Origin: Patescibacteria group bacterium
GTDB lineage: Bacteria; Patescibacteriota; Gracilibacteria; UBA1369; UBA12463
Reading direction: 5' to 3'
DNA: 40,651 nt
NCBI GenBank assembly: GCA_038062935.1
Contig: JBBTWG010000030.1
Coordinates: 1 to 40,651 of the forward strand
Shown: positions 25,427-33,637 of the stretch, in pieces
How the letters are laid out: each line of letters begins with the position of its first letter
Position numbering within the stretch: the stretch's first letter is position 1
Position numbers and translations under genes: made by a program
The notes under the pieces: model-generated
Seen by the model: the letters and a program-made list of their open reading frames with translations, nothing else
The model's database searches: none
Told to the model about the DNA's origin: nothing

Positions 25427-25729
25427 ATGTCGCATATCAAGCTTCGTCCTACGGATGATCATTTGGTCGTCCAGCCAAAAGAGGCTGAGGAAATGACAAA
25501 ATCTGGTTTGTATATTCCGCCAAGTGCTTCGAAAGAACGCCCACAAGAGGGAACGGTGATGGCTGTCGGTCCAGGAAAAATGAGTGAAGAAGGCAAAAGA
25601 ATGTCGATGGATATCAAAGTTGGTGACAAAGTTTTATTTTCAAAATATGGTCCAACTGAGGTAAAGATGGATAATAAAGAGCTTTTGATTCTTTCACAGG
25701 GCGATGTTTTGGCAATAATTGAATCCTAA
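25427..25729 (+). CDS. groES: Co-chaperonin GroES
   Basis: The 100-aa protein runs from the ATG at 25427 ([19 protein letters not shown]...GDVLAIIES). The track start at 25370 lies inside CIRCE. Confidence 0.92.
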
Positions 25730-25754
25730 ATCCTACATCCTAAATCCTATTCCC
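25722..25754 (+). repeat. AnATCCT heptamer array, copy 1 (groES|groEL junction)
   Basis: AATCCT-AAATCCT-ACATCCT-AAATCCT-ATTCCC then ATG. It contains the groES stop TAA (25727-25729). Confidence 0.85.
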
Positions 25755-27392
25755 ATGGCCAAACAAATCTTATTTTCCGATGAAGCTCGTGCCAAACTCC
25801 TCGCGGGTGTCAAAAAATTAGCCAGTACTGTCTGTGTGACGCTCGGTCCGAAGGGTCGAAACGTTGGTCTCGACAAAAAATATGGTTCTCCGACGGTAAC
25901 GCATGATGGTGTCACGATTGCAAAAGAAGTGGAACTCAAAGATCCTTTTGAAAATATGGGTGCTCAGCTCGTGAAAGAGGCTGCAACCAAGACAAATGAT
26001 GTGGCTGGTGATGGAACGACTACGGCGACTTTGCTCGCTTGGAAAATGATCGAAGAAGGTCTCCGCAATATCACTGCTGGAGCGAATCCGATGTTGATTC
26101 GTCGTGGTATGGAGCAGGCACTCGAGAAATTGCTCGTTGCTTTGACAGACATGTCGACAGATATCAAAGGTTCCAAAGAGCGCGTGGCTCAAGTGGCCAT
26201 GATTTCTGCACAAGATGAAGCGATTGGTCAGCTCATTGCTGATGTTCTCGAATCGGTTGGCAATGACGGTGTCATCACGGTTGATGAATCTCAAACGATG
26301 GGACTTTCGAAAGAAATTGTAGAAGGAATGCAATTTGAAAATGGCTACATATCGCCATATTTCGTGACTGACCCAACTCGCATGGAGGCGGCGTACGAAG
26401 ATGCGTACATTCTCATCACAGATAAGAAAATTTCTTCGATTCAGGATATTCTTCCGGTTATCGAAAAAGTTGTTCAGGCTTCGAAAAAAGAATTGGTTAT
26501 TATTGCCGAAGATATCGATGGAGAGGCGCTCGCAACCCTCGTTTTGAACAAGCTTCGAGGTGCGTTTAGCGTCCTCGCGGTAAAAGCTCCTGCGTTCGGT
26601 GAACGTCGCAAAGAAATTCTGAAAGACATTGCTGCGCTCACGGGTGCTCGCGTCATTAGCGAAGAAGTGGGTTTGAAACTGGAAGCTGCTGAACTTTCTG
26701 ATCTCGGTCAGGCTCGAAAAGTGGTTGCTGACAAGGAAAAAACCATTATCATTGGTGGCAAAGGTGCGAAGAAAGAAATCGATGCTCGTGTGAAAGAATT
26801 GAAGATTCTTCTCGACAAGACTCATTCAGATTTCGACAAAGAGAAGCTCCATGAACGTCTCGCGAAGCTCACTGGTGGTGTCGGTGTGATCAAAGTTGGT
26901 GCTGCGACAGAAGTGGAACTCAAAGAAAAAAAGCACCGCATCGAAGATGCTGTTCAGGCGACAAAAGCTGCTGTGGAAGAGGGCATTGTTCCTGGTGGAG
27001 GCGTGGCACTTCTGAAAGCTTCAAAAGCTCTCGACGGTTTGAAACTTGAAGGCGATGAAATGACTGGTGTGATGCTGGTGAAAAAATCTCTCCTCGAACC
27101 CCTCATGCGCATTGCAGAGAATGGTGGTCAGGAAGGGAAGGTGGTTGTGGATCGTGTGCTCAATGAAAAAGAAGGTGTCGGATACGATGTCATGGCGAAT
27201 AAATATGTCGATATGGTGAAGGCTGGCATTATTGATCCGAAAAAAGTGACTCGAACGGCTCTTCAGAATGCCGTTTCTATCGCAAGTTCGTTTCTTACTA
27301 TGGAAGCGATTGTCGTCGATCTTCCAGAGGAGAAGAAGGATGGCGAGCACGGTGGAGGTATGGGCGGTGGTATGGGAGGCATGGGATTCTAG
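25755..27392 (+). CDS. groEL: Chaperonin GroEL
   Basis: [15 protein letters not shown]..., [12 protein letters not shown], and a GGM-repeat C-terminus. ATG at 25755. Confidence 0.96.
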
Positions 27393-27398
27393 AATCAA

Positions 27399-27420
27399 CC
27401 TGTGACTTTTGACTTGTGAC
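27399..27420. repeat. GTGAC-rich intergenic repeat, copy b
   Basis: CCTGTGACTTTTGACTTGTGAC follows the groEL stop. It is 19/20 identical to the core of copy a. Confidence 0.6.
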
Positions 27421-27424
27421 TCTC

Positions 27425-27455
27425 AAGGCCTGGGGCAACCCCAGGCCTTTTCCTT
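27425..27455 (+). terminator. Rho-independent terminator after groEL
   Basis: AAGGCCTGGGG-CAA-CCCCAGGCCTT followed by TTCCTT. Confidence 0.7.
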
Positions 27456-27490
27456 GATTTAATGCAATTTTATGTTATATTGACTTCAAT

Positions 27491-31974: not shown

Positions 31975-31979
31975 GGAGC

Positions 31980-32429
31980 TTACTTCAACATTTCCTGCAC
32001 AATTTTGTTTACCAATGTGCCGTCTGCTTTGCCTTTTACGTGCGGCATGAGAACTCCCATGACTTTGCCAAGTTCGGTTTTTGAGGTGGCGCCGGTTTGT
32101 GCGAGAACTTTCGTGACGGTTGCTCGGATTTCTTCTTCACTCATTTGTTGTGGGAGATATTTTTCGATGATTTTGATTTCTGCTGCTTCTTTTGCGGCGA
32201 GTTCTGGACGATTTCCTGCGGTGAATTGTTCGAAAGAGTCTTTTCGAGATTTGATTTCTTTGCCAACGATTTGGATGACTTCTTCTTCGGTAGCGTCCTT
32301 TTTCTCTTTTCCGGAGACTTCGAATTTCATGACGGCGGCTTTCAACATGCGGAGCGTGTCCGTGACTTCCTGATTTCTGGCTTTCATGGCTTCCATGAGG
32401 TCTTTTTGGATCTGTTCTTTGGTATTCAT
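31980..32429 (-). CDS. yqeY: GatB/YqeY domain protein
   Basis: The 149-aa ORF has DLMEAMKARNQ...LRMLKAAV...LAAKEAAEIKIIEKYLP. Confidence 0.85.
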   Translation of the reverse strand: MNTKEQIQKDLMEAMKARNQEVTDTLRMLKAAVMKFEVSGKEKKDATEEEVIQIVGKEIKSRKDSFEQFTAGNRPELAAKEAAEIKIIEKYLPQQMSEEEIRATVTKVLAQTGATSKTELGKVMGVLMPHVKGKADGTLVNKIVQEMLK

Positions 32430-32505
32430 GGTTCATAACGTATCAGATTTTTTTCTGTGCCGCAAAATTTTCTTTTTTTTCGTGTCTTGTGATATATTTT
32501 TCTGG

Positions 32506-32889
32506 ATGAAAGAAATTCGCATTGTTGACCGGCCGAAGGGAAAATCGAACGATATGCGGGACGTGGCTCCAGATCATTCTTTTGAAGTACGTCCGTTGGA
32601 TTCGTCGGAGGAGGGGAGTTCTGCTCCTGTTTCTGCTGAAGATCGACCTCCAACCGAAAAAGTGAAAGTGCGTTTCGATAAATTTGTACAGCTTGTAGCG
32701 ACTCATAATTTCGATGAAGTGCTGGAGCAAAATGCAGGTGAAGAGATCGTTTTGAGTTCGAATCTGCTTATGGATTTGGCGAATGCGCATGAAGATAAAT
32801 CTGATCCGAGTCGCAAGACCCAAATGATCTTCATTGTGGGCATGGTGCTTGGAATTGGTGCCGCATATCTTATTTTTAAGTTTCTTTAA
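32506..32889 (+). CDS. Tail-anchored hypothetical membrane protein
   Basis: ATG at 32506 (MKEIRIVDRP...), C-terminal TM segment MIFIVGMVLGIGAAYLIF. It stops 2 nt before the pyrH ATG. Confidence 0.45.
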   Translation: MKEIRIVDRPKGKSNDMRDVAPDHSFEVRPLDSSEEGSSAPVSAEDRPPTEKVKVRFDKFVQLVATHNFDEVLEQNAGEEIVLSSNLLMDLANAHEDKSDPSRKTQMIFIVGMVLGIGAAYLIFKFL

Positions 32890-32891
32890 AA

Positions 32892-33605
32892 ATGGCTTCT
32901 CGTTCACTCTATCGCAGAGTAGTTCTGAAACTTTCTGGAGAAATTTTGCAGGGAGATCAAGAATCGGGTATTTCTCCGACGGCTCTTCGTGGTTTCTGTG
33001 GTGAAATTGCTGAGCTCGCCAAGTCGACACAGTTTGTGATCGTCGTAGGCGGTGGAAACTTTTGGAGGTTTCGGGATCATGAAGATGTCGCTCTTGACCG
33101 TACTGTTTCTGACAACATGGGAATGCTCGCGACGGTGATGAATGCGACGGCTCTCGAGAGTACTTTTGCTTCTCTCGGAGTTCCTGCTGTTTGTTTTTCT
33201 GCGATTTCTATGCCGAAGGTTCTCGATGATTATACGGCTCGTGCTGCGATCTCTGCACTGGAAGATGGAAAAATCGTCATCAGTGCTGGAGGAACGGGGA
33301 ATCCTTTTTTCTCGACGGATTCTGCCGCGGCACTGCGGGGTTTGGAATTGCATGCAAATGTTGTTTTGAAGGCGACGAATGTGGATGGAGTTTATGATTC
33401 CGACCCTCATAAAAATAAGAATGCCAAACGTTTCCCAAAAGTATCTTTCAAGGAAGTTCTCGAAAAACAACTTCACGTCATGGATCTCACAGCGATTTCG
33501 CTCTGCCAAGAAGGAAAACTTCCGATTTATGTCTTCGATATGCAAAAAAAAGGTAATTTGAAAAAAGTTCTATCAGGAGAAAACCTCGGAACTCTCATCT
33601 CCTAA
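32892..33605 (+). CDS. pyrH: UMP kinase
   Basis: RVVLKLSGE, VVGGGNFWRF and AGGTGNPFFSTDSAAALR are present. Confidence 0.92.
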   Translation: MASRSLYRRVVLKLSGEILQGDQESGISPTALRGFCGEIAELAKSTQFVIVVGGGNFWRFRDHEDVALDRTVSDNMGMLATVMNATALESTFASLGVPAVCFSAISMPKVLDDYTARAAISALEDGKIVISAGGTGNPFFSTDSAAALRGLELHANVVLKATNVDGVYDSDPHKNKNAKRFPKVSFKEVLEKQLHVMDLTAISLCQEGKLPIYVFDMQKKGNLKKVLSGENLGTLIS

Positions 33606-33637
33606 ATCCTTAATCCTACATCCTAAATCCTAGTTCT
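33604..33637 (+). repeat. AnATCCT heptamer array, copy 3 (pyrH|frr junction)
   Basis: AAATCCT-TAATCCT-ACATCCT-AAATCCT-AGTTCT then ATG at 33638. It overlaps the pyrH stop TAA (33603-33605). Confidence 0.85.

Follow-up and report, generated by a model that had tools for sequence, protein, structure and literature searches.

Six arrays of tandem heptamers of the form A(A/C)ATCCT, referred to here as A-type arrays, were found directly upstream of start codons in a contig of an uncultured Patescibacteria group bacterium (JBBTWG010000030.1). The stretch under study, hereafter the window, comprises the first 40,651 nt of this 71,416-nt contig, which originates from Hainich groundwater (well H41, 0.2 µm fraction). 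Arrays were surveyed over 48,286 nt of this one contig, namely the window and its extension L052, whose coordinates are converted into contig coordinates by adding 26,858. All six arrays are oriented in the mRNA sense, end about 2-18 nt 5' of the start codon, and are either intergenic or overlap a stop codon only. On balance, we lean towards the view that they are slippage-prone heptanucleotide repeats that are kept where they give an unstructured leader for translation initiation independent of the Shine-Dalgarno (SD) motif.

Because the best named relatives of the GroEL protein encoded in the window are Candidatus Peregrinibacteria (70-76% identity), the host is placed, on sequence similarity, among the uncultured bacteria of the Peregrinibacteria group within the candidate phyla radiation (CPR). 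The closest relative, represented by contig L048, has a GroEL that is 84% identical. The practical value of the findings is limited, as the organism is uncultured.

A-type arrays and their initiation context

The repeated unit A(A/C)ATCCT forms a 14-nt super-unit, AAATCCT-ACATCCT (heptamer pair AAATCCTACATCCT). The initial annotation of this DNA had described heptamer arrays with a common 21-mer at three junctions of the window, and re-reading of the sequence bears this out. The exact 21-mer AATCCTACATCCTAAATCCTA occurs at positions 25729, 29580 and 33612, always on the plus strand, compared with 0.01 occurrences expected in the window from 100 dinucleotide shuffles. In Tandem Repeats Finder, the repeats at 25722-25749, 29577-29606 and 33600-33632 have a period of 7, 4.0-4.7 copies and 84-91% matches. 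The three window arrays consist of four to five units and the ybaB array is of similar length, in what is a small sample. Each array includes exactly one CATCCTA unit with AATCCTA on both sides. The A-type sites are as follows.

25722..25749, plus strand: groES/groEL array, AATCCTA AATCCTA CATCCTA AATCCTA, reading TGAATCCTAAATCCTACATCCTAAATCCTATTCCC-ATG; the groEL ATG is at 25755
29573-29579, plus strand: degenerate unit TTTTCTA, directly 5' of the PEPC/aminotransferase array
29580..29609, plus strand: PEPC/aminotransferase array, AATCCTA CATCCTA AATCCTA AATCCTC CC; the ATG is at 29610
33600..33632, plus strand: pyrH/frr array, CTCCTA AATCCTT AATCCTA CATCCTA AATCCTA, then GTTCT-ATG; the frr ATG is at 33638
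48.3-kb contig, minus strand: ybaB leader array, TTTTCCTAATTCCTACATCCTAAATCCTAAATCCTCCATCAC-ATG
48.3-kb contig, divergent from ybaB: cupredoxin leader array, a degenerate copy, TTCCTACGTCCTCTATCCTACATTCTCTATCCTA...ATG
48.3-kb contig: H+-PPase leader array, ATTCCTACATCCTAACTTCTCCCCC-ATG, the second in-frame ATG being taken as the start
19114..19122, minus strand: single A-type unit with which aguB ends, GAA TCC TAA (GAATCCTAA), after which an array of a second family follows

The distance between array and ATG is 5 nt for groEL, 2 nt for the aminotransferase gene and 5 nt for frr. As had been noted earlier, the arrays contain no G in the mRNA sense; the sole G of the spacers, at -5 of frr, lies outside the array. 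The core 13-mer TCCTACATCCTAA occurs five times in the 48.3 kb, invariably in sense and at a distance of 10-18 nt from the ATG that follows. In five of the six arrays, the TAA of the last CCTAAAT unit comes to lie at -15 to -13. The PEPC/aminotransferase and ybaB leaders match at 31 of 32 positions, short flanks included (TTTTC(C)TAA.TCCTACATCCTAAATCCTAAATCCTCC).

Two arrays also provide the end of the upstream gene, as the initial annotation had correctly described. The stop codon of groES lies inside the first unit (GAA-TCC-TAA, with TCC TAA at 25724-25729), and so does that of pyrH (ATC-TCC-TAA, with TCC TAA at 33600-33605); aguB ends likewise. GroES is one residue longer than each of its three closest homologues, and PyrH has a C-terminal Ser in place of the Cys of a relative, whose gene ends with TGT-TAA. 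The natural 3' ends of these genes have thus been overwritten by the arrays. Upstream of groES, at about 25354-25380, we also noted a CIRCE-like operator (controlling inverted repeat of chaperone expression), TTAGCACTC-N9-GAGCGCTAA, by which HrcA control of the groESL operon is implied.

The arrays had been presented as fillers of intercistronic junctions. This specificity does not hold, since three of the six (ybaB, cupredoxin and H+-PPase) sit in 5' untranslated regions (UTRs). A lack of bias in placement and orientation, by which the initial annotation would have been refuted, was not observed: the six arrays show the bias without exception. An extended -10 element, TGGTATCAT, is located between the ybaB and cupredoxin arrays, and these two arrays would thus be 5' UTRs of leadered mRNAs. 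The six arrays are split evenly, three per DNA strand, and GC skew has one sign across the whole window. Array orientation therefore follows transcription and not replication, and a replication-linked orientation was ruled out on these grounds. A promoter inside the arrays was likewise ruled out, given that a consensus scan yielded no site there and that the ybaB/cupredoxin promoter lies between the arrays. A search of the whole window against Rfam 15, at gathering score, returned a group I intron and a tRNA only, with no match at the arrays.

The array sequences are identical across independent ENA, Logan and NCBI assemblies and are therefore not assembly artefacts. Heptamer repeats may nevertheless break short-read assemblies: position 1 of Logan contig L047 falls inside the PEPC/aminotransferase array (window position ~29577, 33 nt 5' of the ATG), and two contigs of another phylum, L005 and L021, terminate in arrays.

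The initial annotation stressed that the arrays leave no room for an SD motif. This is true, and none of the tetramers GGAG, GAGG and AGGA is present in the array-bearing leaders, but it is not special to them, because the absence of SD motifs is lineage-wide. An SD-like tetramer at -20 to -4 was found for 3 of 44 genes of the contig, compared with 12.5% of random 17-mers, and for none of 51 genes in three related genomes, where G makes up 8-11% of the last 20 nt before the start. The 44 contig genes have 3-10% G at -16 to -1 and show an excess of A at -14 to -9. Candidatus Peribacter riflensis is documented as SD-scarce, without CCUCC, and published 3' tails of Peregrinibacteria 16S rRNA, GAACACUUCCUUA, GAACAUUCCCUUA and GAUUACCUCUUUU (given again as GAACACTTCCTTA, GAACATTCCCTTA and GATTACCTCTTTT), lack CCUCC as well (PMC10783764). 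The ribosomal proteins bS21 and bL33 are often missing in this clade (PMC9297842). Pairing of the arrays with a GGAU beside the anti-SD, as suggested initially, is not supported: on reading the sequences, a G-free array would form about 3 bp at most with these published tails, which are those of relatives and not of the host itself.

The predicted folding energy of the region from -30 to +20 averages -3.7 kcal/mol for all starts, compared with -6.9 kcal/mol for internal coding 50-mers. No start regions of the contig are predicted to fold more weakly than the array-bearing ones, at 0 to -1.2 kcal/mol, and among the roles offered by the initial annotation the unstructured leader is the one that fits best.

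An upstream TAA is also characteristic of genes without arrays. In 87 non-array genes of four Peregrinibacteria genomes (the window, L048, L049 and L050), TAA starts peak at -16 to -13, with 28 of 80 occurrences, and TTAA is enriched 11-fold in -20 to -5. This clade-wide signal could represent either a non-SD initiation signal or the -10 boxes of leaderless mRNAs. For instance, a candidate -10 box, TGGTATAAT (36128-36136), ends 7 nt 5' of the ATG at 36143. The sequence upstream of arfB, TAATCCACCC, which had been grouped with the arrays, is better read as a TATAAT -10 box followed by a very short leader. The leader of rseP (34214-34235) contains a different G-free repeat, the 9-mer CTCACTCAC in 2.4 copies, which ends at the ATG, and the motif CTCACTCACC occurs in the rseP leader of both the window genome and the relative L048.

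Second heptamer family, variation among genomes and other features

A second heptamer family of the window, referred to here as B-type, has units of the TTGTGAC type with the 14-nt pattern GTCACAn-GTCAAAn. The B-type arrays are as follows.

29545..29572, plus strand: array after the PEPC stop, TTGTGAC ATTTGAC GTGTGGC ACGTGAC, directly before the A-type array
27401..27421, plus strand: array 8 nt 3' of the groEL stop, CTGTGAC TTTTGAC TTGTGAC
19076..19108, minus strand: array before aguA, in mRNA sense GCCACAC GTCACAT GTCAAAA GTCACAA GTTACAA
L052 20987-21014: array before the H+-PPase gene

The array after PEPC includes a 5-bp hairpin and then a T-run, with a terminator-like match at 29557-29569, while the one after groEL is followed by a GC-rich hairpin and T-run that read as an intrinsic terminator. 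A 20-mer, GTCACATGTCAAAAGTCACA, is common to the aguA-side array and the region upstream of the H+-PPase gene. The called starts of these two genes fall inside arrays (aguA, window 19071-19098; H+-PPase, L052 20954-20987), and the second in-frame ATG directly after the array is the more likely start of both aguA (~19071) and H+-PPase. Heptamer repeats can thus mislead gene callers, which is of relevance for annotation. Taken together, the A and B families show one strand rule: the mRNA carries the G-richer strand where an array follows a stop, and the C-richer strand where it precedes a start.

Unit copy number was compared among strains, as had been proposed initially, and one difference was detected. 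A strain with 99.2% identity (L037) has five units at groES/groEL instead of the four in the window, the extra one being AATCCTA; the difference is a clean 7-nt indel, and the GroEL protein is identical. No variation was seen in the pyrH/frr array among six contigs, nor in the ybaB and cupredoxin arrays among three. At a larger distance the arrays disappear. No period-7 repeat was found in 21 kb of L048, which keeps the gene order, and no period-7 arrays were found in 64 kb of three related genomes. The L048 spacers at the same junctions are G-free and T/C-rich, so the composition of the leader is conserved and the repeat is not. The groES/groEL spacer of L048 holds ctacatcttaaat and its PEPC/aminotransferase spacer holds cttaaatcttc, both of which look like units decayed by C-to-T changes.

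The repeat is also found far outside the Peregrinibacteria. The exact 20-mer AATCCTACATCCTAAATCCT, the one 20-mer searched in this genome collection, was located at 34 loci in 26 assemblies of at least 12 other phyla. These phyla include Bacteroidota, Acidobacteriota, Cloacimonadota, WOR-3, Bipolaricaulota, Saccharibacteria, Planctomycetota, Bacillota and Campylobacterota. Thirty-three of the loci are distinct, L007 and L034 being near-identical copies in two bins. The arrays of other phyla are intergenic, often several units longer, and strictly alternate the A and C variants. They are often a hairpin arm, and some genomes have them within longer dispersed repeats (L006/L018 and L011/L024). 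Among those beside genes, 12 are G-rich in the mRNA after or over a stop, four are C-rich after a stop, and two precede a start; hence 12 of the 16 arrays after a stop are G-rich in the mRNA. This usage is the mirror image of that in Peregrinibacteria and obeys the same strand rule. In viral contigs, the C-variant and G-variant 20-mers gave no matches, the T-variant gave four, and pure (AATCCTA)3 was found at 24 loci; these counts neither support nor test a special status of the C-variant.

Several further features of the window were recorded. A group I intron (Rfam RF00028, 103.9 bits) at 6387-6614 occupies the anticodon loop of a tRNA gene that spans 6337-6640 on the minus strand. To either side of the intron, the acceptor, D and T arms can be made out, and the anticodon was not resolved by brute-force splicing with ARAGORN. 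Its neighbours at ~3.8-8.6 kb comprise a serine recombinase, a small terminase subunit, a DNA methyltransferase and SSB, and this region looks like an integrated phage-like island. A 44-nt inverted repeat (35841-35884/35997-36040), with arms that are 98% complementary and 112 nt apart, lies between rseP and an open reading frame (ORF) of 195 aa, ~0.8 kb upstream of dnaA, with no switch in the sign of GC skew. In the strain of SRR21802938 (L054 208-334, compared with window position ~36218), this 195-aa ORF upstream of dnaA has ~125 extra nt, and a 237-aa gene is called.

Origin and role of the arrays

The arrays are simple-sequence repeats of the same general kind as the cyanobacterial short tandemly repeated repetitive sequences (STRRs) and the GGGNATC and TAACTGA repeats. 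They change by whole units, as seen in the single 7-nt indel between strains and as expected from replication slippage, and would be copied or homogenised between loci, as suggested by near-identical 21-32-mers at different loci. They would persist only in the orientation that satisfies a local constraint on the mRNA, with the C-rich strand in sense 5' of starts. For groEL, the aminotransferase gene, frr, ybaB, cupredoxin and H+-PPase, the resulting leader would be the region on which the 30S subunit loads independently of SD, or would at least be entirely compatible with that task. The donation of stop codons can be explained by the unit itself: it contains TAA, and since its length of 7 is no multiple of 3, expansion brings stops into several frames. 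On this reading, stop donation is a by-product of array expansion against the end of the upstream ORF and not a function.

A number of points weigh against this reading. The role of the arrays as a loading region is one that we infer, and the survey covers 48 kb of one genome. Relatives at a genus-level distance have no such arrays, and hence the repeat itself is dispensable. Independent slippage leaves unexplained both the presence of the 20-mer at 33 loci in at least 12 other phyla and the pattern of a single CATCCTA flanked by AATCCTA in every array. Finally, the TAA at about -15 could be a -10 element of leaderless mRNAs and not a translation signal, and part of the TAA signal may come from the stop codons of upstream genes where operons are tightly packed.

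The arrays could instead be a selfish or neutral passenger, i.e. a tiny dispersed repeat that spreads by copying or gene conversion and by slippage, has no role, and survives where it is harmless, G-free upstream of starts and G-rich after stops. The suggestion of a small invasive repeat made in the initial annotation stays alive in this form, though we regard it as rather unlikely. Unrelated loci are near-identical over 31-32 nt with their short flanks (PEPC/aminotransferase and ybaB), the B family behaves alike, arrays are absent from relatives and overwrite gene ends, and in other genomes they are embedded in longer dispersed repeats (L006/L018, L011/L024). However, neither an associated transposase nor a reverse transcriptase was seen, and an alignment of the six copies revealed no inverted termini or target duplications, the relatives being too diverged to define empty sites. 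A mere passenger would hardly be expected to fit so tightly, with all six arrays start-proximal and TAA in phase at -15 to -13, and the spacers of relatives resemble decayed versions, which suggests age over recent invasion. The exact core in five leaders, within a narrow 10-18 nt of the ATG, could alternatively reflect a sequence-specific operator, in which the core UCCUACAUCCUAA with CCUAAAU is bound by bS1, a cold-shock-type protein, a KH-domain protein or an antisense RNA, and the factor co-regulates or recruits ribosomes to all six genes as a post-transcriptional regulon. The same proposal was made by MacGregor for TAACTGA (PMC4679880). It would agree with the conserved, non-random occurrence of one C-variant between A-variants, with the unchanged pyrH/frr array in six contigs, and with the recurrence of the 14-nt period in many phyla. 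Nevertheless, such an operator appears unlikely: the six genes have no functional theme, the arrays are missing at the same junctions in the closest relative, and the 48 kb examined yielded neither a candidate binder nor an antisense copy. Moreover, the copies in other phyla, mostly after stops and in the opposite orientation, misfit one conserved RNA-level partner. It is more doubtful still that, in Peregrinibacteria without an anti-SD, (U)CCUAAAU/UCCUACAUCCUAA takes the place of the SD motif as a sequence-specific initiation element, read by a protein such as bS1 or by an rRNA segment outside the 3' tail, with the recurrence of the 14-nt repeat across at least 12 other phyla due to a conserved partner or to horizontal spread, as opposed to coincidence between simple repeats.

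Roles in RNA processing, termination or DNA structure are, even jointly, very improbable. They comprise a site for RNase Y or RNase E, a rut-like patch for Rho loading, and a two-tetrad G-quadruplex on the template strand. RNase Y is encoded nearby (23329-24858), but nothing was found in support of the RNase site proposed by the initial annotation, and three arrays reside in 5' UTRs, with no upstream cistron to uncouple. The arrays are C-rich, G-free and predicted to be single-stranded, as a rut site would be; at 28-33 nt, however, they are short for one, and they occur inside read-through operons such as groES-groEL. Each array has four GG tracts, reminiscent of the preference for four units reported by Rehm et al. 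Quadruplexes built from GG-only tracts would be weak, if they form, and the B family, which has no G tracts, is placed by the same rule. A role at the level of transcription is also disfavored by the lack of any promoter-like site within the arrays.

Relation to known heptamer repeats

The exact sequence of the A-type arrays has not been described previously; the kind of repeat has. The statement of the initial annotation that no such element is described thus holds for the sequence only, as two families of heptamer repeats are close in kind (PMC4692102, PMC4679880). Rehm et al. (2015) reported GGGAATC and GGGGA(C/T)T heptamers in Xanthomonas and Nostoc that are dispersed and intergenic, with a preference for four units that was linked to G-quadruplex formation. 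Up to 50 bp upstream of an ORF, the G-rich strand of these repeats is the non-coding one; where they overlap a stop or follow it by up to 50 bp, it is the coding one. They favor gaps between co-oriented ORFs, vary between close relatives, are associated with no functional class, and have no known function (PMC4692102). The A-type arrays resemble them in the four-unit preference, the strand rule, the placement and the variability, and two of the arrays described here overlap the upstream stop. The Nostoc C-strand unit AATCCCC differs from AATCCTA at two of seven positions, and the Nostoc unit corresponds to STRR1, CCCCAGT.

Other characters set the A-type arrays apart from the Rehm repeats. Their G-rich strand, TAGGATT/TAGGATG (array oligonucleotide TAGGATTTAGGATGTAGGATTTAGG), has GG tracts only and none of three or more G, so they do not belong to the quadruplex-forming subclass. 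Their host is a CPR bacterium without SD use, they reach to about 2-6 nt from the ATG and form the whole leader, and they show a regular 14-nt A/C alternation.

MacGregor (2015) described TAACTGA direct repeats in marine Beggiatoaceae, certain Cyanobacteria and a small number of Bacteroidetes, where two to six forward copies precede start codons by a few nt in spacers without a ribosome binding site (RBS), and proposed binders of the S1, Csp or CsrA type (PMC4679880). Both families consist of forward tandem heptamers near starts, with no RBS and with stop codons in the unit. Housekeeping genes lie downstream in both, and the heptamer is common to unrelated phyla with no evident transfer mechanism. 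In contrast to TAACTGA, which contains G, the unit A(A/C)ATCCT is G-free. Among the SD-less genes of the Beggiatoa genome, those with repeats are a minority, and the 16S rRNA of Beggiatoa is not reported to be without an anti-SD.

Heptanucleotides were the commonest among repeats of 5-11 nt in the survey of Mrazek et al. (2007), as summarized by MacGregor, being mostly non-coding, with polymerase slippage proposed as their origin (PMC4679880). The 7-nt indel between strains fits slippage of this kind; the survey, as summarized, does not deal with start-codon proximity, strand rules or sequence sharing between arrays. Like these long simple sequence repeats and STRRs, the A-type arrays comprise tandem 7-nt units in at least three copies, are dispersed in non-coding positions, and vary by whole units.

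Unstructured A/U- or pyrimidine-rich leaders that act independently of SD are familiar from Bacteroidota, cyanobacteria and S1-dependent initiation. The A-type leaders share with them the lack of SD, low G, weak structure at the start and an A-rich upstream signal, whereas those leaders are neither tandem repeats nor shared verbatim between genes. SD-scarce lineages as such are documented (PMC10783764). The function of heptamer repeats has been an open question since their description in cyanobacteria, and the present case adds a clean data point. In a host that makes no use of SD and, to judge by its published relatives, has no CCUCC anti-SD, a repeat without G tracts follows the rules of placement and strand known from the Xanthomonas/Nostoc and Beggiatoa repeats, which argues against G-quadruplexes as the common explanation and for a constraint at the mRNA level that keeps G-poor, unstructured sequence before start codons.

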